From the NCBI GenBank assembly GCA_903892035.1, contig CAITGV010000001.1:18578-82577 (forward strand): a stretch of DNA of 64,000 bases, read 5' to 3'. The DNA is from an uncultured bacterium. Its GTDB lineage: Bacteria > Patescibacteriota > Minisyncoccia > Phycocordibacterales > UBA9973. The stretch's first letter is position 1. Every line of letters begins with the position of its first letter. The notes under the pieces were generated by a model that was given only the letters and a program-made list of their open reading frames with translations, was not told the origin of the DNA and did not search any database. This document shows positions 3,266 to 54,292 of this stretch, piece by piece. A program made the position numbers and the translations under genes.

Positions 3266-3282
3266 TTCAAATATTTTCTATT

Positions 3283-3314
3283 AAAAAATCCTCTCAATTT
3301 GAGAGGATTTTTTA
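3283..3314 (+). terminator. rho-independent terminator after rpsA
   Basis: ATCCTCTCAA-TTT-GAGAGGAT followed by TTTTT. Confidence 0.7.
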
Positions 3315-3377
3315 ATTTGCTATTTATGTAAAAATGTTGTAATGTAAATTTTGTATAACAACTAAATACTTATTTAC

Positions 3378-30591: not shown

Positions 30592-30837
30592 AAGCTAAAA
30601 AAATTCCCCAGGTGGCAGCCCGAGGAATCTCAAAAATATGTTTCCGGAGAAATAGTCATACACCGCCTTAAAATGCTGACGTGACTCGGTCTTCCTAACT
30701 GTTTCGGAATGGAAGATTTAACAGAAATATATATGTCATATATATTGATAATATTCAAAATGAATATTATATTTAAAATCTACAAAGTAAGTAGCTTGGC
30801 TCCGCGGGTAGGGATCGAACCTACGACCAATCGATTA

Positions 30838-31406
30838 CACGAATCCTAATATTACTAAAAGGGGTGGACTATATCATATCCATGTTTTTACTTTCATAAA
30901 AATTTAGGACCAAGGCGCTTCCCGCTCTCTATAACTAGAGAGAAGTACTCCCCGAAGGGATAGTCTCTACACCTGCCCGCCGACCTAGGTCGGAGGGATT
31001 GGCTCGGGATTGTCCTTTTTACTGACTAAGGATTTCCCCGAATTCACCTTGTTTTTCATCCTTGCTTTCGCAAAGGAAGCTGCGTAATGCCCGCTTCGAC
31101 TTCTCTGTGACAGTTTGCACAAAGTAATACACATTTATCAAGTTCTGCTTTTACTCTCTCCCAACTTCGCGTGTATCCCTTCGCGCCAATCCCAAATTTT
31201 TTATTTAAAGGATTAACATGATGAAATTCAAGCGCATCTGTGCAACGAGAATAATGACAAATTTCGCAATTGCCACCGAGATAATTTAAAGACAATTCTT
31301 TAATCTTTTTTCGGCGTTTTACAACTGCTTTGATAAGTGTATCGCGACGCATAGCATAAGTTCGTTTCTCTGGCATAAGTTTATTATACCAAATGAAACT
31401 GGACCA
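30838..31406 (-). mobile_element. group I-like self-splicing intron in the tRNA-Asn anticodon loop (between positions 35 and 36), carrying an HNH endonuclease ORF
   Basis: Follows a U in the 5' exon and ends in G; R-like (AGAGACUA, ~30963-30975) and S-like (AUGAUAUAGUCC, ~30868-30880) elements can pair as P7; ORF lies in the 5' part. Confidence 0.65.
31056..31376 (-). CDS. HNH homing endonuclease (intron-encoded)
   Basis: CEICHYSRC...EFHHVNPLN...LLCANCHREVE, a complete HNH/zinc-finger motif set; 106 aa. Confidence 0.8.
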   Translation of the reverse strand: MPEKRTYAMRRDTLIKAVVKRRKKIKELSLNYLGGNCEICHYSRCTDALEFHHVNPLNKKFGIGAKGYTRSWERVKAELDKCVLLCANCHREVEAGITQLPLRKQG

Positions 31407-31509
31407 CAGTCGATTGCTCTACCGCTGAGCTACCGCGGAGCTAAACCACTTACTTTAAAATACAAAGAACTACCCGACATAATAGCAAAAAGAGTGCTAA
31501 AATGCAAAG

Positions 31510-39400: not shown

Positions 39401-39660
39401 ATGAAGGCAAAGATGGTGGACTTGTGACAATTGCAGGTATTGTGACTGAATCGAGAATTATCATCACAAAGAAAAATGAAAGAATGGCTTTTATTAAAGC
39501 CACTGACATGAAAGGAACTATTGAAGTGGTAGTTTTCCCAAAATTATTCCAAGATGCAGCTTTAAATATTGAACTTGAGAAATGTATAGCCCTAAAAGGC
39601 AAAATCTCTCTTCGCAATGGCGAAAAAAGTATTATTGCCGAGGCTATTAAGATGATCTAA
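36463..39660 (+). CDS. dnaE: DNA polymerase III alpha subunit
   Basis: PHP domain FVHLHTHSHYSLLDG; polymerase core motifs; 1065 aa. Confidence 0.95.
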   Translation: MASKFVHLHTHSHYSLLDGLSKVDDIVSIAKKNKMKAIALTDHGSMYGSIDFYKACKKADIKPIIGVEAYIAERSRLDKESGIDNRRYHLTLLAKNLTGYKNLIRLVTRANLEGYYYKPRMDKEILREHHEGIICLSGCMGSQLSQAVLSDNNERAEELIKEHIDIFGKENYFIELHSHPHVEGDKKLRDGLIALGRKFNITLVAAQDSHYPCKDDHHAHETLLAIQTGAETNESNKFTFGEDDFSLIDEKTALEYFADIPEAVTNTQIVADMCDIELTLGTWVFPDLKIEDGMSYEDKLRETAFAGFEKREMEKTKEAVDRLEYELKIILDKGYSPYFLVVADLIRFARESKILTTIRGSVAGSLTTYLIGITNVDPIAYKLPFERFLNPERPSAPDIDMDYADNRRDEVIQYAKDKYGEDKVAQIGTFGTMMARGAVRDVARALGYPYGIGDRISKMIPMGSQGFPMTIDHAIEIVPELKDAYEKEKDTKEIIDLAKKLEGCVRHISVHAAGVVIAPKPLYEYAPTQLDPKGGKIITQYDMYSIEEAGLLKFDFLGIRNLAILGDAVDLVKRIHNIDIDLEKIPLDDKKTFEMLARGETEGLFQLNGSGMTRYLKELMPSTIHDINAMVALYRPGPMEMIPEYIKRKHNPSLVRYLDPRMKSILDQSFGVITYQDDVMLIAIELGGYSWLEADKLRKAMGKKIPAEMALQKEKLLSGFMENGLSKEKAKTLWELIEPFAAYGFNKAHAASYGRVAYQTSYMKANFPIEYMCAILSAESGDVEKISEIITECNKMGITVLPPDVNESYGGFTVVNDPKENSIGTIRFGLYTIKNLGTDIADAIIAERMDPPNGGGKYKSIGDFLERIKHKNLNKKSLDALVKSGSLDNFGERGALLGNMEEMLAYNKETNQGSQAQTSLFGDLPSEVLTLKLKPAEPAKKEDKLAWEKELLGLYISGHPLDKYKDKLEKMEWNITKILNEGKDGGLVTIAGIVTESRIIITKKNERMAFIKATDMKGTIEVVVFPKLFQDAALNIELEKCIALKGKISLRNGEKSIIAEAIKMI

Positions 39661-39662
39661 AA

Positions 39663-39712
39663 AACAAAAGACCGTCTTTGGGAAATCCCAAAAGACGGTC
39701 TTTTGTTTTTTT
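39663..39712. terminator. bidirectional terminator between dnaE and the convergent minus-strand gene
   Basis: CAAAAGACCGTCTTTGGGAAATCCCAAAAGACGGTCTTTTG, a ~16-bp stem, followed by T8. Confidence 0.75.
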
Positions 39713-42375: not shown

Positions 42376-44862
42376 CTATGCCCCGTGGCATTTTTTGAAT
42401 TTCTTGCCGGAACCGCAAGGACAGAGGTCATTTCGGCCAACACCGGCGTATTCGCTATTTTTTGAATTGTCATTAGTAGATGTGACTGTGCTTTCTTCAC
42501 CAGCGGAAAGGATGAGTTTCTGAGGAGTTACATCGGTAGCCATAACATTTTGGCTTCCCTGTGCGCCACTGACATCCATGGTTGTAATGAGCGACATGAC
42601 TTGTTCTTTGAAAGAAGCTTCCATGTCTTTGAACATCTGCAGTCCTTCTTTTTTATATTCAACGAGCGGTTCACGCTGACCATATGCGCGAAGGTTTACT
42701 GACGAACGCATGTATTCCATGGATTCGATATGTTCAGTCCAGAGGATGTCGGTCACGTACAAAATTATCCGTCGGGCGGTCTCGAGAAATGCATCTTCGC
42801 CGGCAGCTTTCTTTTTTTCATCCATCGCTTTTCCAAAATCTTCAAATTCCATCGCAAAACCGGAGAGCAATTCAGAAATTGCAGTCTTATCACCTTCAAG
42901 CATTTTGCGACGACGACTGTAAATTGCTTTACGTTGGTAATTCATCACATCATCGTATTCGAGTGTATACTTACGAGCATCAAAATTGAAACCTTCAATC
43001 TTTGCTTGAGCATTTTCCAAAGATTTTGAAATCATACGATTTTGAATTGGTTGATCTTCTGGAACACCGAGCTTGATCATTAAATTCTTTATTCCTTCTG
43101 AACCGAAAACACGCATCAAATCATCTTCCATTGAAACGTAAAATTGAGTCTCACCCGGGTCACCCTGGCGACCGGCACGTCCGCGAAGCTGATTGTCGAT
43201 ACGGCGTGCTTCATGACGCTCTGTACCAATAACAAAAAGTCCACCGAGGTCTCGAATTTCTTTTGATTCTTCTTCTCTGGCAGTAATACCACCGAGTTTA
43301 ATATCGATTCCACGTCCTGCCATATTTGTCGCAAGGACCACACTTCCTTTTTTACCAGCACCTGCAATAATCTCACCTTCACTTTCATGATTTTTTGCAT
43401 TAAGCATTGTGTGAGGCACACCTTCTTGGTGAAGATAAGATGAAAGCAATTCATTACGCTCGATTGATACAGTACCAATAAGCACTGGTTGACCTTTTGC
43501 ATGAAGCTCTTTAACTTTTTTTGCTACTGCAGTAAATTTTCCTTTTTCATTTTGAAAAATAAAATCATTGTGATCAATACGAGAAATACTTTTATTTGTC
43601 GGAACTTGAATAACACTCAAATTGTAAACCTTTTGAAATTCTTCTTCAGAGGTCTTTGCTGTACCTGTCATACCAGAGAGTTTTGTATAAAATCGAAAAT
43701 AATTTTGAAATGTGATTGAAGCCACTGCTCGACTTTCTTTTTGAATGTTCACACCTTCTTTTGCTTCAATAGCTTGGTGAAGTCCTTCACTCCAACGGCG
43801 CCCTGGTTGCATTCTTCCAGTAAAAGGGTCGACAATAACTACCTCACCCTCCCTAACTACATAATCCTTGTCGCGCAAGAAAAGTGCTTCTGCGCGAACT
43901 GCGGTTTCTAAGTGGTGCACATATTTTATTCCTTTTTCAGTATAAATATTTTCTGTACCTAAAAGTTTCTCGGCTTTTGTAATACCATTGTCAGTAAGAG
44001 TCGTAGCTTTTAATTTTTCATCGACGCCATAGTCTTCATCACGTTTCAGTTGGCGAGCAATATTTGCAAAAGTCTTATATAAATCTTCAGAATCCCCTGT
44101 CTCACTTGAAATGATAAGTGGAGTACGTGCTTCATCGATTAAAATAGAGTCAATTTCGTCGACAATTGCGTAATGATGTTTTCTCTGCATTACCTGATCC
44201 ATTGAACCAGCTAAATTGTCTTTCAAATAATCAAAACCATATTCATTGTTTGTTCCATATGTAATGTCGCAAGCATAAGATTCTTTTCTTGAAGATGGTC
44301 GCAAAAATTCATATGCAACCTTAAATGATTCATTTTCTTTTTCTTCTTCTGGTATTGAATGATTTTTATCATAAACAAAAGAAGTATTTTGAGAATTGAT
44401 AACACCGATAGACAAACCCATAAAAGCATATATTTGTCCCATCCACGCAGCATCGCGACGCGCAAGATAATCATTCACAGTGATAACGTGTACACCTTCT
44501 CCAGCCAAAGCATTTAAATACACTGGCAATGTTGCAACCAATGTTTTTCCTTCACCAGTACGCATCTCAGCGATATTGCCACGATGTAGTGCAATACCTC
44601 CTATCATCTGCACATCATAATGCCTGAAACCAAGTGTGCGTTTTGCAGCCTCTCGAGTAAGAGCAAAAGCCTCTGGCAAAATATCGTCTAATGACTCTCC
44701 CTTTAATAGACGGGCTTTAAATTCAAGTGTTTTTACCGGAAAATCAGCATCAGAAAGTGCCCCGAAATCAGATTCGAGTGAATTTACCTTTGCTACCAAG
44801 GGTGCAACAGAGGAAATAAAACGTGTATTATCATCACCAAATATCTTTTTAATTATGCTCAT
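42376..44862 (-). CDS. secA: preprotein translocase ATPase SecA
   Basis: DEAD-motor motifs and C-terminal zinc finger CPCGSGKKFKKCHG; 828 aa. Confidence 0.95.
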   Translation of the reverse strand: MSIIKKIFGDDNTRFISSVAPLVAKVNSLESDFGALSDADFPVKTLEFKARLLKGESLDDILPEAFALTREAAKRTLGFRHYDVQMIGGIALHRGNIAEMRTGEGKTLVATLPVYLNALAGEGVHVITVNDYLARRDAAWMGQIYAFMGLSIGVINSQNTSFVYDKNHSIPEEEKENESFKVAYEFLRPSSRKESYACDITYGTNNEYGFDYLKDNLAGSMDQVMQRKHHYAIVDEIDSILIDEARTPLIISSETGDSEDLYKTFANIARQLKRDEDYGVDEKLKATTLTDNGITKAEKLLGTENIYTEKGIKYVHHLETAVRAEALFLRDKDYVVREGEVVIVDPFTGRMQPGRRWSEGLHQAIEAKEGVNIQKESRAVASITFQNYFRFYTKLSGMTGTAKTSEEEFQKVYNLSVIQVPTNKSISRIDHNDFIFQNEKGKFTAVAKKVKELHAKGQPVLIGTVSIERNELLSSYLHQEGVPHTMLNAKNHESEGEIIAGAGKKGSVVLATNMAGRGIDIKLGGITAREEESKEIRDLGGLFVIGTERHEARRIDNQLRGRAGRQGDPGETQFYVSMEDDLMRVFGSEGIKNLMIKLGVPEDQPIQNRMISKSLENAQAKIEGFNFDARKYTLEYDDVMNYQRKAIYSRRRKMLEGDKTAISELLSGFAMEFEDFGKAMDEKKKAAGEDAFLETARRIILYVTDILWTEHIESMEYMRSSVNLRAYGQREPLVEYKKEGLQMFKDMEASFKEQVMSLITTMDVSGAQGSQNVMATDVTPQKLILSAGEESTVTSTNDNSKNSEYAGVGRNDLCPCGSGKKFKKCHGA

Positions 44863-44913
44863 ATATGTATATATAAACTAAAATGCGGATTTATTTTAAC
44901 ACAAAAACAAAAA

Positions 44914-44946
44914 ATCCCCTACCGACTTGCGGAGGGGACTTTTTGA
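44914..44946. terminator. strong hairpin with flanking A6/T5 runs between a tiny Lys-rich ORF and the secA start
   Basis: TCCCCT-A-CCG-ACTTG-CGG-AGGGGA then CTTTTT; preceded by AAAAAA. Confidence 0.5.
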
Positions 44947-44951
44947 AAAAG

Positions 44952-45023
44952 TTATATTCTCTTTTTTGCTGTCTTCTTTGCTACTTTCTTTACTACTTTC
45001 TTTGCTTTCTTTTTTGCTGCCAT
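44952..45023 (-). CDS. 23-aa Lys/Ala-rich sORF (MAAKKKAKKVVKKVAKKTAKKRI), possible leader peptide; speculative
   Basis: ATG..TAA frame immediately 5' of the hairpin upstream of secA on the minus strand. Confidence 0.15.
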   Translation of the reverse strand: MAAKKKAKKVVKKVAKKTAKKRI

Positions 45024-45525
45024 AATATTTAAAAAAAAATTATTTATAAAGATGTTACAACAGAGCGACCTTTTCAAAAAAAATTATTTAAAATATTTTT
45101 TAAAAAACAAAACTGTTGTAGCGATAATTTAATTATCGTACATAAAAATATTTCATGCAAGACTTTTTTTTCAAATATGTGGATAACTTTTTTTATTTTA
45201 GAAAATATTTTTTGAAAAAAATATTTTCTAAAATAAAAATACTTTTAAAAAAGTCCTCGGAAAAAATCCCCAGACATTTTTTAAAAGTATTTTTATTTTT
45301 TAATTTACTATTTTATTAGTAGTCTGAAAAATAATATTTTATTTTTTTAAAATGTATAAAACAAAAAATCTTTCACCAAAGTGAAAGATTTTTTGTTTGC
45401 ATTGTCGCCGTGTGAAGCCAACAAGTACGAAACTCCAACATAAGTGCCTATGTGAGTGCAGTTGCTGACTTCACACGAAGACAACAACTTCACTACTTAA
45501 GTGTACGATAGATGAATAATTAACA

Positions 45526-45600
45526 CAACCCCCTAAATCCCCCTTGTCAGGGGGACATTAAATACTTAGCAGTTTCCCTCCCTTGATAAGGGGAGGGTTA
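45526..45600 (+). repeat. structured intergenic repeat, copy B
   Basis: CAACCCCCTAAATCCCCCTTGTCAGGGGGA ... CCCTCCC-TTGATAAG-GGGAGGG; homologous to copy A with compensatory stem changes. Confidence 0.6.
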
Positions 45601-45624
45601 GGGTGGGGTTTTATATAAAACACA

Positions 45625-45646
45625 AAACCCCCTTGCGGGGGTTTTG
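45625..45646. terminator. hairpin terminator (AAACCCCC-TTGC-GGGGGTTTT)
   Basis: 5-bp GC stem plus T4, A-run upstream; downstream of the 589-aa minus-strand gene. Confidence 0.55.
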
Positions 45647-45795
45647 TGAGGCACTTATTTTTCTGAAAAAGAGATCAGAGCTCTTAACTCACCCTTATAG
45701 TATAGCAAATAGAATAGAAAAGTCAAGTATTTTTTTATATTTTATGCAAAAAAAGAACCCCCGAATCTCGGAGGCTCCTTTGCAATAACTAAACG

Positions 45796-47565
45796 CTATT
45801 GCACAAATATTTTTATGGCACTATGCTCCCCTTTGAGAACATAAATACCAGGTGGAAGATTGAGTTTATCTTTTTCAAGAATAACCTCTCCTTCCTGTGC
45901 GTGGCCTGACCAAACTTTTTGGCCGGTGGTGTTAAACAGAAAGAAATCACTTTCTTTCTTTGCATACAACGAGGAACCAATTTCTTGGATACCGGTTGTG
46001 TTAACAACAGTAACAGTTACATATTCATGAACTGTTGTGTTGCCATCAGTAGCAGTTAAAGTAAACATAGTGGTGGAATTTAAAATTCCAGTTGAATGCG
46101 TACCGCTTAAATTTACCTGACCAATACCATGATCAATGGTGACAGTTACATTACTCATGTTCGCAACTGACCAATGAAGCAAACTTGATCCACCAATTGC
46201 TATAACGCTAGGTAAAGCAGTAAATGAATTGATAGTAACAACAGGCGTTTGAAAAACAAAAGTTACAGTTGCACTATATCCATTTTCACTGTTGCTATTG
46301 AAAGCAAAAACTCTTGCAAGATAAGTCACCCCATCTTGAAAAGGATTGTTTGTCGGCAACTGAATACTCATACCATCATTAGTAATCCCCGCTTGAAAGG
46401 CTGCCATTGGAGAAGTAAAAATGGTATGCGCAAAACCATAATCAAATTGAGAAGTTATCTCAAGTTGAAGTGAACCTGCGAATTGTGAGCTAACATTTAC
46501 ATCAAAGTTTTGATTCGTACTACTAAAAGTGTAGGTGGAATCAATTAATGATGTAAGAGTTACAGGAGCTTGCGGTGTAACAAAAGCATGATTGTTACTA
46601 CAAACTTCAGTAAAATTTCCCCATACACAAGCATGCACACTGTAGTGACTGTTCCCTAATAGATTATAAAATCTAGAAGTAACTTGAACACTTGTGAATT
46701 GTGCACTAAATGGTTGCGATACTGAATCAATAACAGTATTACTGCTATCACTTAAATATTCAGTAAAGTGACCACTTGTTCCATTTGGGAAAATTGTACG
46801 AACAACTTTAACAGAGTCCCAGTAAACTGGGCATGCATCAAGGTTGCTTGTAATCTGAGGTGTTGTCGCAACTTGTGATGTCACCATGTCTGATGCTGTT
46901 GTGTCTGATCCAACTACATTATCAATTATAATTACATAACTGATGTTATAATTGTTATTTGGAAAACCTGTCAATGTATAAGTCGTTTGACTCGAATCGA
47001 TAGGAGTTACAAACTGGTCCCACACATAAGCATCTACCCATGAGAATACTGCATATCCTGGGCAAACCCAGACTGTAATTGTTGAAGTCGTATAACCAGT
47101 AAATCGGTTGTACGGAATCAATCCACCACCATCAAGATTTGTAGGTGCACCAGATAATGAAATCTGGGATGATACAAAAATTGGACTCACATAAACACTC
47201 AGTGCTCCTGTGGAATCCAATATTACCACATGAGCTGTGTCAATGAATCTTGCACGATATTTTTCATAATATGTGCCAGATACTGCAAAATGGATACTGT
47301 CATTCGTTACTACAAAAGTATCATTTACAGCTGAAGTGTTTACGAACGTATCAACGTTCGTGTGAAAGTTTTGCATAATTGAGGTGTATCCCCAATCAAG
47401 CGAAACGATAGCGCTGTCCCCTGGAGGAACAATTACTTTTTTTTGCGCACGAGAGAACAGTTGTCCTCCATAGATTGGCGCATTAAAATTTACTGACTGC
47501 GCTTCGGAAATTGCCACCATGGCAAACATCAAAGCGATTGCTACTAATAAAGTTACTTTTTTCAT
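45796..47565 (-). CDS. exported beta-rich protein (589 aa), hypothetical surface protein
   Basis: Signal peptide MKKVTLLVAIALMFAMVAISEAQS; T/S/V-rich, Ig-like composition. Confidence 0.55.
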   Translation of the reverse strand: MKKVTLLVAIALMFAMVAISEAQSVNFNAPIYGGQLFSRAQKKVIVPPGDSAIVSLDWGYTSIMQNFHTNVDTFVNTSAVNDTFVVTNDSIHFAVSGTYYEKYRARFIDTAHVVILDSTGALSVYVSPIFVSSQISLSGAPTNLDGGGLIPYNRFTGYTTSTITVWVCPGYAVFSWVDAYVWDQFVTPIDSSQTTYTLTGFPNNNYNISYVIIIDNVVGSDTTASDMVTSQVATTPQITSNLDACPVYWDSVKVVRTIFPNGTSGHFTEYLSDSSNTVIDSVSQPFSAQFTSVQVTSRFYNLLGNSHYSVHACVWGNFTEVCSNNHAFVTPQAPVTLTSLIDSTYTFSSTNQNFDVNVSSQFAGSLQLEITSQFDYGFAHTIFTSPMAAFQAGITNDGMSIQLPTNNPFQDGVTYLARVFAFNSNSENGYSATVTFVFQTPVVTINSFTALPSVIAIGGSSLLHWSVANMSNVTVTIDHGIGQVNLSGTHSTGILNSTTMFTLTATDGNTTVHEYVTVTVVNTTGIQEIGSSLYAKKESDFFLFNTTGQKVWSGHAQEGEVILEKDKLNLPPGIYVLKGEHSAIKIFVQ

Positions 47566-47845: not shown

Positions 47846-48198
47846 CAATGCTTTGTGCCTATAAGCCGAATTCTGTTATCGATAGTCATTTATCTAGCCC
47901 CTCGATTACTCTCGGGGTCAAGCGGCACTTCCTTCGACTTCGCTCGGGACTAGTCCTGAACTTGTTGAAGGACACGGCCTTGCATTCACGTAAGGATTTA
48001 GCCGTTTCATTCTGATATTTCTATCAGCCTATCCCTTACGGGACCCTAGCCTTTCGGCATCGGCGTTTCTGCTCGCACCTCTATGATTGCTCACGACGGG
48101 CGTTACCCGCTACGCTTTCCCTCGATTACTCTCGGGATAAATGTTCGGACTTTCCTCCCTACAGCCAAAGCCATAGAGTAACTATCCAGCACAAAGCA
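47846..48198 (-). ncRNA. rnpB: RNase P RNA (bacterial type A-like)
   Basis: Minus-strand GGGAGGAAAGUCCGAACA (P4 5' strand) and ACAGAAUUCGGCUUAUAG (P4 3' strand); P1 GCUUUGUGC/GCACAAAGC closes the molecule; -10 TATAAT lies 7 nt upstream; terminator-like hairpin at 47805-47835. Confidence 0.85.
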
Positions 48199-52504: not shown

Positions 52505-54120
<1,616 letters not shown>

Positions 54121-54292
54121 AAATTGTTATAAATAACAATAGTTTGTGAGAACGGAACAAAATAAAAAGTATAATTTTTATGTGCTCACATTTTTAGGAA
54201 ATAGCTCTTAATTATATAGAAACTTGCATCTAATTATGTCTTGTATTCACTATTCCGTTGTAAAAGAAAGCGCCTAAAAAAGACGCTTAACT

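Follow-up and report, generated by a model that had tools for sequence, protein, structure and literature searches.

What is a long ORF-free gap in compact Patescibacteria DNA doing upstream of secA? In the 64-kb stretch of DNA analysed here (the window), the gap at 44863-45795 is the largest internal one (933 bp, GC 0.29; the runner-up measures 389 bp). A preliminary description, centred on positions 45030-45400, had called it by far the largest non-coding stretch and proposed three roles: a replication origin or DUE-like region, a phage- or plasmid-derived regulatory region, or a heavily operator-controlled secA promoter. It is indeed the largest ORF-free gap, but it is not non-coding, since a micro-ORF and two RNA genes are present in it. 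The stretch did prove regulatory, as that description supposed, although in none of the three proposed roles. We consider it probable that 45030-45400 comprises the 5' leader of a small unannotated minus-strand transcription unit together with the control region upstream of it. The unit is situated between a structured RNA gene (RNA B) and secA, and in it a putative DnaA-controlled promoter would serve a predicted polycationic micro-protein. All units of the gap share the minus-strand orientation of secA, and follow one another in the order RNA gene A, RNA gene B, AT-rich palindromic spacer, DnaA box, promoter, leader, 23-codon ORF, terminator, secA extended -10 promoter. The features are:

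45748-45777, minus strand: intrinsic terminator of the upstream gene p589 (hairpin 45777-45755, U-run 45754-45748; coordinates verified)
45611-45726, minus strand: small RNA gene A, with the RNA at about 45694-45611
45726-45721 and 45707-45699, minus strand: RNA A promoter, TTGACT, 16 nt, then TGcTATACT (scored 10/12, with TG extension)
45692-45688, minus strand: invariant 5' GUGAG of RNA A
45648-45621, minus strand: RNA A terminator, from the terminator scan
45530-45608, minus strand: window-specific insert with two GC-rich hairpins, missing from the relative L082 in pairwise alignment
45590-45608, plus strand: G-quadruplex motif GGGGAGGGTTAGGGTGGGG, inside this insert
45350-45528, minus strand: structured, rod-shaped RNA gene B
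45528-45523 and 45505-45500, minus strand: RNA B promoter, TTGTGT, 17 nt, then TACACT
45484-45462 / 45424-45402, minus strand: the two sides of the RNA B rod
45459-45451, minus strand: invariant GCACUCACA of RNA B; its GGAG follows at 45436-45433, minus strand
45398-45359, minus strand: intrinsic terminator of RNA B, plus a U-rich tail
45188-45358, no strand assigned: AT-rich spacer, about 86% A+T, holding palindromes P1 and P2
45230-45252 / 45277-45299: palindrome P2, perfect 23-nt arms, 24-nt spacer and a GC-containing apex
45190-45213 / 45216-45239: palindrome P1, perfect 24-nt arms, 2-nt centre
45178-45187, minus strand: GTTATCCACA, the perfect DnaA box plus its 5' G, the box lying at about -61 to -53 relative to the predicted start
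45132-45177, minus strand: promoter of the micro-ORF unit (coordinates verified; consensus taken over 46 modules)
45177-45161, minus strand: UP-like T-run and A-run of this promoter
45160-45155 and 45137-45132, minus strand: -35 TTGCAT, 17-nt spacer, -10 GATAAT
45024-45125, minus strand: 5' leader of about 100 nt, with an A/U-rich unstructured stretch reaching the ATG
45120-45113 / 45063-45056, minus strand: arms of the leader hairpin
45070-45066, minus strand: conserved GGUCG, just 5' of the hairpin's 3' arm
44952-45023, minus strand: micro-ORF MAAKKKAKKVVKKVAKKTAKKRI, 23 codons and stop
44909-44946, minus strand: intrinsic terminator of the micro-ORF unit (stem 44938-44933 / 44920-44915, U-run 44914-44909; read from the sequence)
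44863-44903, minus strand: secA extended -10 promoter TGTGTTAAAAT (44903-44893) and short leader
44862-44860, minus strand: secA ATG (SecA domains confirmed)

The argument for a DnaA-box promoter starts from the exact DnaA-box complement reported earlier at 45178-45186, TGTGGATAA, which is present; no other perfect TTATCCACA occurs in the 64 kb. Across Patescibacteria loci totalling 746 kb the same 9-mer was counted 39 times, 23 of them at the box site. Forty-six distinct Patescibacteria loci have such a module, in which box, promoter, leader and K/R-rich ORF, followed by a terminator, precede secA in this order; in L022 another gene lies between the ORF and secA, and in L001 the unit is on the opposite strand. 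The regular expression that defined the modules fixed six of the nine box positions, and therefore the invariance of these six is uninformative. The three positions that it left degenerate are 91-100% conserved over the 46 modules, and the G before the box, which is outside the search pattern, is 91% conserved. The position of the box is conserved as well, as expected of a DnaA-regulated promoter: it lies 49-51 nt from the -10 in 20 of 24 loci, and here GTTATCCACA stands 17 nt upstream of the -35. The consensus of the promoter itself, over the 46 modules, is nTTTTtT..AAAA..aTTGt-N17-gATAAT. A near-palindrome previously noted at 45121-45139, GCGATAATTTAATTATCGT, was found as described; it contains the -10 hexamer and spans the -10 and start-site region.

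A single perfect DnaA box centred near -57, at a fixed distance before a sigma-70 promoter, occupies the position of a class-I type activator or repressor site. DnaA is the only known protein with this box specificity, and we infer that it would bind here; binding would tie transcription to the availability of DnaA and, through it, to the replication cycle. Another factor could, however, read a single 9-mer. Regulation by DnaA as a transcription factor, via promoter-proximal boxes, is established (PMC11317965, PMC13438810, PMC3193534), and in known cases such as dnaA, nrdAB, sda, and gidAB-parAB of P. aeruginosa the consensus TTATCCACA likewise lies just upstream of a sigma-70 type promoter. 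The present promoter differs from these in having one box, a putative site at a rigid position of about -57 that is kept class-wide in CPR, and in its target, a poly-Lys ORF of 14-75 codons with a structured leader. The box also occurs before an HTH_17 gene in four loci and is missing from five others with such a gene, which is only suggestive of a DnaA “regulon”.

A perfect DnaA box beside very AT-rich, easily melted DNA is equally a trait of bacterial oriC. Could the site be a chromosomal replication origin or a DUE-like element, where DnaA binds the box and melts the adjacent AT-rich palindrome? The setting is suggestive of this: A+T reaches 86% in the 160 nt upstream of the box, versus 64% in the whole window, and 3 nt separate the extended GTTATCCACA box (4 nt in the case of the TTATCCACA 9-mer) from P1, a 50-bp perfect palindrome of 96% A+T. 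A perfect AT palindrome overlaps the box or stops no more than 4 nt short of it in at least 10 lineages, and the gap is the window's largest intergenic region. Against this, the box is single and unclustered, the gap holding one perfect match and one with two mismatches, while the window total at up to two mismatches is at chance level (267 versus 262.7 expected). There is no switch of GC skew at the site: the skew is negative along the entire window and its cumulative curve falls through the site, GC3 skew stays negative to the left and right of it, whichever strand the genes are on, and 14 of 15 related loci have positive skew at both flanks, the flanking genes being mostly co-oriented rather than divergent. 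A fork leaving the site would meet the 16S gene at 52.5-54.1 kb head-on. No dnaA or dnaN domains were found among the scanned ORFs of the 64-kb window, and tblastn with a DnaA query found no homologue in the window or within 4-6 kb of secA in about 160 loci, which bears out the earlier remark that a location away from dnaA argues against a classical oriC. Finally, the box keeps a fixed spacing to a promoter, and long AT palindromes abound in other parts of these genomes, 66 of the 80 counted in 1.6 Mb having no box. With neither a box cluster, nor a skew switch, nor dnaA/dnaN linkage, an origin or DUE role is extremely improbable.

If the AT-rich DNA next to the promoter is not an origin, what are its palindromes? 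When 45025-45400 was shuffled 300 times with its dinucleotides preserved, the longest perfect inverted repeat had a mean of 9.5 nt and never exceeded 15. The observed arms of 24, 23 and 18 nt are therefore far beyond chance. The perfect 37-bp palindrome reported at 45196-45232 is real, but the string quoted for it was slightly wrong, since seven A follow the central G, and the actual element (P1) is larger. The reported 17-bp inverted repeats around a 24-nt spacer are likewise real and longer, forming P2, which extends to 38-nt arms at 84% and shares 10 nt of its left arm with the right arm of P1. The 14-bp hairpin at 45362-45395 also extends, to perfect 18-nt arms (45359-45376 / 45381-45398) with a 4-nt loop, and corresponds to the RNA B terminator. 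Folded as RNA, the spacer 45188-45358 gave z = -10.9. The closest relative, L082 (SecA 73% identical), keeps RNA A, RNA B, box, promoter, GGUCG and ORF; the sequence of the spacer and its big palindromes are not conserved there, while its length is similar.

The big palindromes resemble hairpins that act as terminators or insulators. The remaining long palindromes of the window are ordinary terminators at gene ends, composed of an A-tract, a GC stem and a T-tract, and P2 would be a second element of this design, which is typical of the genome's terminators. The RNA B terminator and P2 have it in common, as in tandem or bidirectional intrinsic terminators. P1 differs: it is a lineage-specific, almost pure A+T palindrome abutting the box, and being nearly free of G and C, with a 2-nt centre and no U-run after it on the transcribed minus strand, it is a poor RNA terminator. 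Together, the 45359-45398 hairpin, P1 and P2 would most likely serve as insulators between the DnaA-box promoter and the RNA genes A and B with their strong promoters. The AT palindromes abutting the box hint in addition at a DNA-level role, as a cruciform or in unwinding, for which our main model does not account. Specificity of AT palindromes to the box was considered and rejected, with only 14 of the 80 located near a box and the others in the window being ordinary terminators. A AAATATTT motif, enriched upstream of the box at variable distance, was also discarded, as a matter of composition and not a site.

Palindromes in a lineage-specific AT-rich sequence might also be the remnant of a mobile element, phage or plasmid, for instance a MITE-like insertion with terminal inverted repeats, to which the 38-nt imperfect inverted arms and 24-nt core of P2 would correspond. 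The similar spacer length in L082 indicates, however, that the spacer is not an insertion. A search of the gap sequence across the 64 kb found no second copy, so that there are no repeated operators either. Neither an integrase nor a tRNA is adjacent, the surrounding units are syntenic on Patescibacteria chromosomes across the class, and the micro-ORF and the module are absent from all 79 viral-contig hits of the box-promoter pattern. We give next to no credence to a mobile origin of the stretch, and the phage- or plasmid-derived role falls with it.

What, then, does the DnaA-box promoter drive? In the leader of the predicted transcript, GGUCG or AGUCG is found in 36 of 41 modules. The best stem closing on GGUCG averages 7.53 nt, compared with 6.03 +/- 0.22 nt when the arms are swapped among loci; 0 of 200 permutations attained the observed mean, and the stem sequences are wholly different between lineages. 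The leader hairpin, near the 5' end, would present GGUCG and is probably a protein-recognition or stabilising element, with the A/U-rich part of the leader serving as the putative ribosome entry region. Downstream, 46 distinct K/R-rich ORFs of 14-75 aa occupy the equivalent position, with 57% K+R and not a single D or E in 1513 residues. Some lineages have arginine-rich variants, and R/(K+R) shows no significant correlation with GC content (rho 0.20, p 0.19). The ORFs of L046 and L141 differ by four synonymous and no nonsynonymous changes with flanks about 72% identical, and close ORF pairs with diverged flanks show six synonymous versus two nonsynonymous differences; one in-frame 3-nt indel was noted as well. 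Comparison of the sequences supports a coding ORF through this synonymous-biased divergence, the in-frame indel, the R-rich variants and the lack of acidic residues. The 23-codon ORF would encode a Lys/Ala peptide of purely basic character, probably a polycation that binds nucleic acids.

Alternatively, the lysine-rich ORF might be untranslated and the product of the unit a purine-rich regulatory small RNA, conserved in its leader hairpin and terminator. In favour of this, the ORF is very short and of low complexity, and a Shine-Dalgarno sequence is not visible. The K-rich peptides had no match above noise in protein families (NCBIfam, Pfam) and PDB chains searched with a profile gave 0 hits. 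A collection of 15 billion proteins contained none of ten homologous ORFs of 31-75 aa, and gene callers give no support; the callers would miss such ORFs because of their low complexity and short length. On the other hand, every module has an ATG-GCN start and a stop just before the terminator, and ORF lengths vary in whole codons only. The substitutions in close pairs favour synonymous sites while the flanks diverge, third positions show A/G wobble and GCN variation, and the arginine-rich variants hold the charge via different nucleotides. An untranslated unit is unlikely in our view. Extreme Lys/Arg/Ala content without acidic residues is known from Histone-H1-like AKKA-repeat proteins (Hc1/Hc2, AlgP, the HupB tail), which are much longer, and from the very small basic ribosomal proteins bS22, bL37, Thx and eL41. 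The micro-ORF peptide resembles both in composition and has no detectable sequence homology to either, and an association with DNA or the ribosome is purely putative.

In 46 loci the ORF precedes secA in the same orientation, which recalls SecM, the secA leader peptide of Enterobacteria, and other arrest peptides encoded ahead of sec genes, and runs of lysine codons are known to slow ribosomes. The small ORF might accordingly be a SecM-like leader peptide, or the entire stretch an operator-rich promoter, controlling secA. What separates the two genes speaks against this. A strong terminator intervenes here, and a hairpin with T4 is found no more than 90 nt past the stop in 43 of 46 modules. 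Beyond it secA has its own extended -10, in relatives T(G/A)TGnTAnAAT, 10-30 nt before the ATG, and in L022 and L001 the arrangement with secA is itself broken. The peptide, built only of K, R, A, T, V, P and S, has neither a signal sequence nor an arrest motif. The box and palindromes precede a distinct transcription unit that has a promoter and terminator of its own, and do not form part of an operator-laden secA promoter. Control of secA by either route is very improbable; the micro-ORF transcript would end at its terminator, and secA would then be transcribed from its own promoter. An exact look-up of the SecA sequence returned no record.

The upstream part of the gap is occupied by the two RNA genes. 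RNA A folds at -29.8 kcal/mol (z = -4.4), and homologues with matching promoter and terminator were found at 15 loci or more. RNA B has z = -9.0 on the minus strand, with -106 kcal/mol versus -90 on the plus strand, and in an alignment of 49 sequences 25 of its 28 pairs show compensatory changes. Its terminator was matched in the minus-strand scan as an 18-bp stem followed by TATACATTTT, a hairpin with U-run, and L082 has a hairpin of different sequence at the same position. RNA B adjoins murB in several lineages, which, with the covariation, makes it a candidate cis-regulator of cell-wall precursor synthesis. Scans of the window and the gap against Rfam (gathering threshold and E <= 10) gave only noise-level matches for RNA A, RNA B and the leader in 44700-45900; at the gathering threshold there was nothing in 10 loci, RNA B being present in at least five, and nothing for the consensus-like L035 copy. 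SRP, 6S and tmRNA were rejected as identities of RNA B: no model matched, the apical loop is variable and a GNRA tetraloop is lacking. ARAGORN reported 0 tRNAs in the window and missed an intron-split tRNA. Beyond RNA A lies p589 (45796-47565), an orphan gene with no Pfam family; its sole full-length match is an identical sequence and the other five cover 9-16%. There is no usable population variation for p589, since the sole returned contig (L081) is 100% identical. No synteny of the flanking genes p589, p389, p225 and p726 was found in relatives.

A bolder reading, less likely than not, is a class-wide unannotated module of Paceibacteria type, in which a single high-affinity DnaA box phased with a strong promoter would couple synthesis of a polycation of 14-75 residues, H1-tail-like or ribosome-associated, to the replication initiator. 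GGUCG would be a new leader motif, the abutting AT palindrome a cruciform-forming or supercoiling-sensitive element in many lineages, and A and B new RNA families, with B a murB leader in some lineages. Literature searches on DnaA-box promoters in CPR, on small lysine-rich proteins and on ORFs preceding secA returned nothing relevant.

CPR/Patescibacteria have tiny genomes, and their regulation is almost uncharacterised. For annotation, the case indicates that a lone perfect DnaA box by AT-rich palindromes should not be called an origin. It also suggests that unannotated small genes crowd the largest “non-coding” gaps of such compact genomes; the present one has a micro-ORF, a leader motif and two RNA families lacking in Rfam. 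The conserved DnaA-box promoter would be among the first concrete, testable regulatory circuits in CPR, linking the replication initiator to a polycationic micro-protein.

The ORF-free gap between secA and the orphan gene p589 (44863-45795, 933 bp) is, as the preliminary description held, larger than any other internal gap of the window (the runner-up has 389 bp), and all the features listed in that description were found in the sequence. Its characterization as non-coding did not survive: the gap holds instead a row of small transcription units, including a micro-ORF and two small-RNA genes (RNA A and RNA B). Together they make up a conserved cluster of regulatory elements and small genes that lacks annotation; its organization, with both flanking genes included, is as follows.

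45796-47565, minus: p589, orphan 589-aa gene adjoining the gap
45777-45748, minus: p589 terminator
45726-45699, minus: RNA A promoter, TTGACT, 16 nt, TGcTATACT, near-consensus (10/12 matches)
45648-45621, minus: RNA A terminator
45530-45608: lineage-specific 79-bp insert with two GC-rich hairpins, between RNA A and RNA B
45528-45500, minus: RNA B promoter, TTGTGT, 17 nt, TACACT
45398-45359, minus: RNA B terminator
AT-rich spacer, 171 bp, about 86% A+T, holding the palindromes P2 and P1
45187-45178, minus: extended DnaA box GTTATCCACA
45160-45155 and 45137-45132, minus: micro-ORF promoter, with an UP-like T-run/A-run tract, -35 TTGCAT, 17-nt spacer and -10 GATAAT
45120-45113 / 45063-45056, minus: hairpin in the micro-ORF leader (about 100 nt)
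45070-45066, minus: GGUCG in the leader, immediately 5' of the hairpin 3' arm
45023-44952, minus: micro-ORF encoding MAAKKKAKKVVKKVAKKTAKKRI
44938-44909, minus: terminator after the micro-ORF
44903-44893, minus: extended -10 of secA itself, TGTGTTAAAAT
42376-44862, minus: secA, five SecA Pfam domains

The DnaA box (TGTGGATAA at 45178-45186) is the sole perfect copy in the 64 kb, and the near-palindrome recorded beside it (45121-45139) combines the -10 of the micro-ORF promoter with a copy in inverted orientation at the start site. In many Patescibacteria loci, a K/R-rich micro-ORF whose product begins MAAKKK or MAKKK closely precedes secA in the same orientation; combined with a DnaA-like box and a promoter, these ORFs make up 46 distinct modules, whose consensus is aaaAAAAG-TTATCCACA-nTTTTtT..AAAA..aTTGt-N17-gATAAT. 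Six of the nine box positions were set by the search pattern, and their invariance is thus by construction; the three positions left degenerate are 91-100% conserved across the 46 modules, and the G preceding the box, outside the pattern, is 91% conserved. The distance from box start to -10 is 49-51 nt in 20 of 24 loci. With the start site placed about 7 nt past the -10, the box spans roughly -61 to -53, and such a predicted site, centred near -57, would be compatible with a class-I type contact to RNA polymerase. In 746 kb of Patescibacteria loci, TTATCCACA occurs 39 times, 23 of them at the micro-ORF promoter site. The closest relative, L082, keeps RNA A, RNA B, box, promoter, GGUCG and ORF start. 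Since the gene upstream differs between loci (murB, a SET-domain gene, an ABC1 kinase, LeuA and others), the conserved entity is the unit plus secA. As a control, 2.9 million viral contigs were scanned for AAGTTATCCACA-N37-42-GATAAT; none of the 79 matches had the micro-ORF and GGUCG.

A perfect TTATCCACA was also found upstream of a gene located a few kb downstream of secA, encoding an HTH_17-domain protein with the N-terminal motif SGYxxxYIxxLCR (L022:12573, L045:13307, L047:11312, the same as L143, and L015:9755). The box lies 46-50 nt before a -10 in L022, L047 and L015; in L045 a -10 could not be assigned at this spacing, and the box is missing before the gene in five other loci that carry it. 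The presence of the box at both the micro-ORF unit and HTH_17 genes hints at a small regulon.

A box in AT-rich DNA had raised the possibility of a replication origin or DUE-like region. Three defining features of oriC were looked for, and the gap showed neither a cluster of boxes, nor a skew minimum, nor dnaA or dnaN among the window ORFs scanned. The window contains 267 9-mers within two mismatches of the box (262.7 expected), two of them in the gap. GC skew is an accepted origin indicator for CPR genomes (PMC4736985); the cumulative skew across the window declines through the site, with no minimum. GC3 skew, expressed for the plus strand, is -0.215 and -0.148 to the left of the site and -0.351 and -0.033 to the right for genes grouped by strand; being negative on both sides and for genes of either strand, it places the whole window on one replichore, with which the minus-strand 16S gene is consistent. 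Likewise, GC skew is positive on both flanks in 14 of the 15 related loci with enough flank, where genes on both flanks are mostly co-oriented with secA. A tblastn search with a hand-entered B. subtilis DnaA query matched neither the window nor any of about 160 secA loci. The interpretation as an origin is rejected.

The micro-ORF looks translated. L046 and L141, with flanks about 72% identical, differ in the ORF by four synonymous and no nonsynonymous codons, L084 and L085 by one in-frame 3-nt indel, and L106 and L116 by two synonymous changes and one nonsynonymous change. Across the modules the ORF is 14-75 codons long (median 27.5), and a hairpin with T-run follows within 90 nt of the stop in 43 of 46 modules. 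The products are 57% K+R, arginine-rich in some lineages, with no Asp or Glu in 1513 residues; beyond single instances, only K, A, R, T, V, P, S and G are used. For such a polycationic peptide, nucleoid or ribosome binding would be the obvious candidate roles. A SecM-type leader was rejected, given the micro-ORF's own terminator, the separate secA promoter and the lack of an arrest or signal motif. Searches by protein family, PDB and exact sequence gave no match for the peptides, which therefore form an unannotated family; ten K/R products of 31-75 aa (from L038, L054, L090, L146 and others) had no exact match among about 15 billion predicted proteins, and gene callers systematically miss this family. 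Upstream of the ORF, 36 of 41 leaders carry GGUCG or AGUCG. The 14 nt past this motif pair with the upstream leader over a mean best contiguous 7.53 bp, against 6.03 +/- 0.22 with arms exchanged between loci (0/200 permutations reached the observed value), and the covarying stems are unrelated in sequence across lineages (UACAACAG / CUGUUGUA in the window, UGUAGUGAUUA / UAAUCAUUACA in L082).

RNA A (45611-45726, minus) recurs in at least 15 other loci (e.g. L082:471-592), always directly upstream of RNA B. It measures about 80 nt in the window and 80-100 nt across loci, where it has a near-consensus promoter (TTGAC-N17-TGCTATACT), an invariant 5' GUGAG, a variable hairpin, the conserved stretch AAUGnCU, and compensatory changes in its terminator. 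RNA B (45350-45528, minus, and 48 other loci, e.g. L035:5859-5952) is a rod of about 95 nt, in which 23 bp close around an invariant core, GCACUCACA...GGAG(C)UCGCACC. Compensatory changes affect 25 of its 28 pairs (49 sequences), and the region folds far better than shuffles (z = -9.0; -106 kcal/mol on the minus and -90 on the plus strand). Neither RNA matches Rfam. RNA B ends 5-25 nt before the murB ATG, without terminator, in L010, L019, L022, L024, L029 and L045, and in some lineages it may act on murB in cis, as a regulator or riboswitch; in the remaining loci it has its own terminator, followed by the micro-ORF unit or secA. The insert between the two genes, absent from L082, carries a canonical plus-strand G-quadruplex motif (GGGGAGGGTTAGGGTGGGG, 45590-45608), and L001 has a similar CCCTAACCC string upstream of RNA B.

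The inverted repeats reported earlier are real and longer than described. The 37-bp palindrome is part of P1, with perfect 24-nt arms (45190-45213 / 45216-45239) and a 2-nt centre; the 17-bp repeats, correctly given a 24-nt spacer, extend to the perfect 23-nt arms of P2 (45230-45252 / 45277-45299); and the 14-bp hairpin has 18-nt arms (45359-45376 / 45381-45398) and is the RNA B terminator. The longest perfect repeat per dinucleotide shuffle averaged 9.5 nt over 300 shuffles and never exceeded 15. P1 and P2 are lineage-specific, since the L082 spacer, of similar length, is less AT-rich and not palindromic. The other long palindromes of the window, among them the inverted repeats at 3280-3316 and 39659-39711 (perfect arms of 18 and 21 nt), are ordinary A-tract, GC-stem, T-tract terminators at gene ends. 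These appear to be the organism's standard bidirectional terminators, a design that makes long palindromes common in intergenic DNA. P2 fits it, with apex GUCUGGGGAUUUUUUCCGAGGAC between A and U runs; P1 does not. We therefore interpret the RNA B terminator together with P2 and P1 as a terminator/insulator stack, which would separate the strongly promoted RNA genes from the DnaA-box promoter.

Long AT-rich palindromes are a general feature of these genomes: 80 with AT-rich arms of at least 13 nt occur in 1.6 Mb, only 14 of them near a box. Of 44 modules, 26 have a significantly long inverted repeat in the 120 nt preceding the box, and at least 10 lineages have a perfect palindrome, rich in A+T, that overlaps the box or ends within 4 nt of it (L084:3416-3465, L085:3583-3630, L009:2253-2302, L048:4251-4298; also L107, L023, L083 and L033). 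Their arms measure 13-25 nt and their centres 0-22 nt; some have GTTATC or TCCACA in one arm and an inverted half-box in the other, and their sequence changes between lineages while the symmetry is kept. Pure-AT palindromes abutting the box in several lineages could have a DNA-level role.

The source of the window is a CPR/Patescibacteria genome. The best SecA relatives among 185,000 species genomes are Paceibacteria-type MAGs (60-68% identity), and the best metagenome relative is L082 (73%). The 16S rRNA lies at 52515-54121 (minus); about 39 nt are inserted close to its 5' end, and the gene after it encodes a Kelch-repeat protein, in place of a 23S gene. RNase P RNA (47846-48197, minus) scores 110.7 bits, barely above the Rfam gathering score of 100. 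p589 has no Pfam family; among 5.8 billion clustered proteins, the sole match over its full length is to the identical sequence itself, present on five contigs (the longest 488 kb), the remaining matches covering 9-16% of the query, and the single further contig returned for the region is 100% identical. The window also holds a split tRNA, hand-read as tRNA-Thr(UGU), which ARAGORN, reporting zero tRNAs over the whole window, did not call.

30797-31439, minus: split tRNA with a 568-nt group I intron
31439-31408, minus: 5' exon
31407-30840, minus: group I intron
31376-31056, minus: HNH-like ORF inside the intron
31096-30845, minus: Intron_gpI core inside the intron (Rfam)
30839-30797, minus: 3' exon, CCA encoded

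The micro-ORF unit resembles a DnaA-box-regulated promoter. No Rfam, Pfam or NCBIfam family matches it, and a literature search found nothing on the box-promoter/micro-ORF combination. The cluster would represent a new, predicted variation on transcriptional control through a DnaA box, accompanied by several new small genes.
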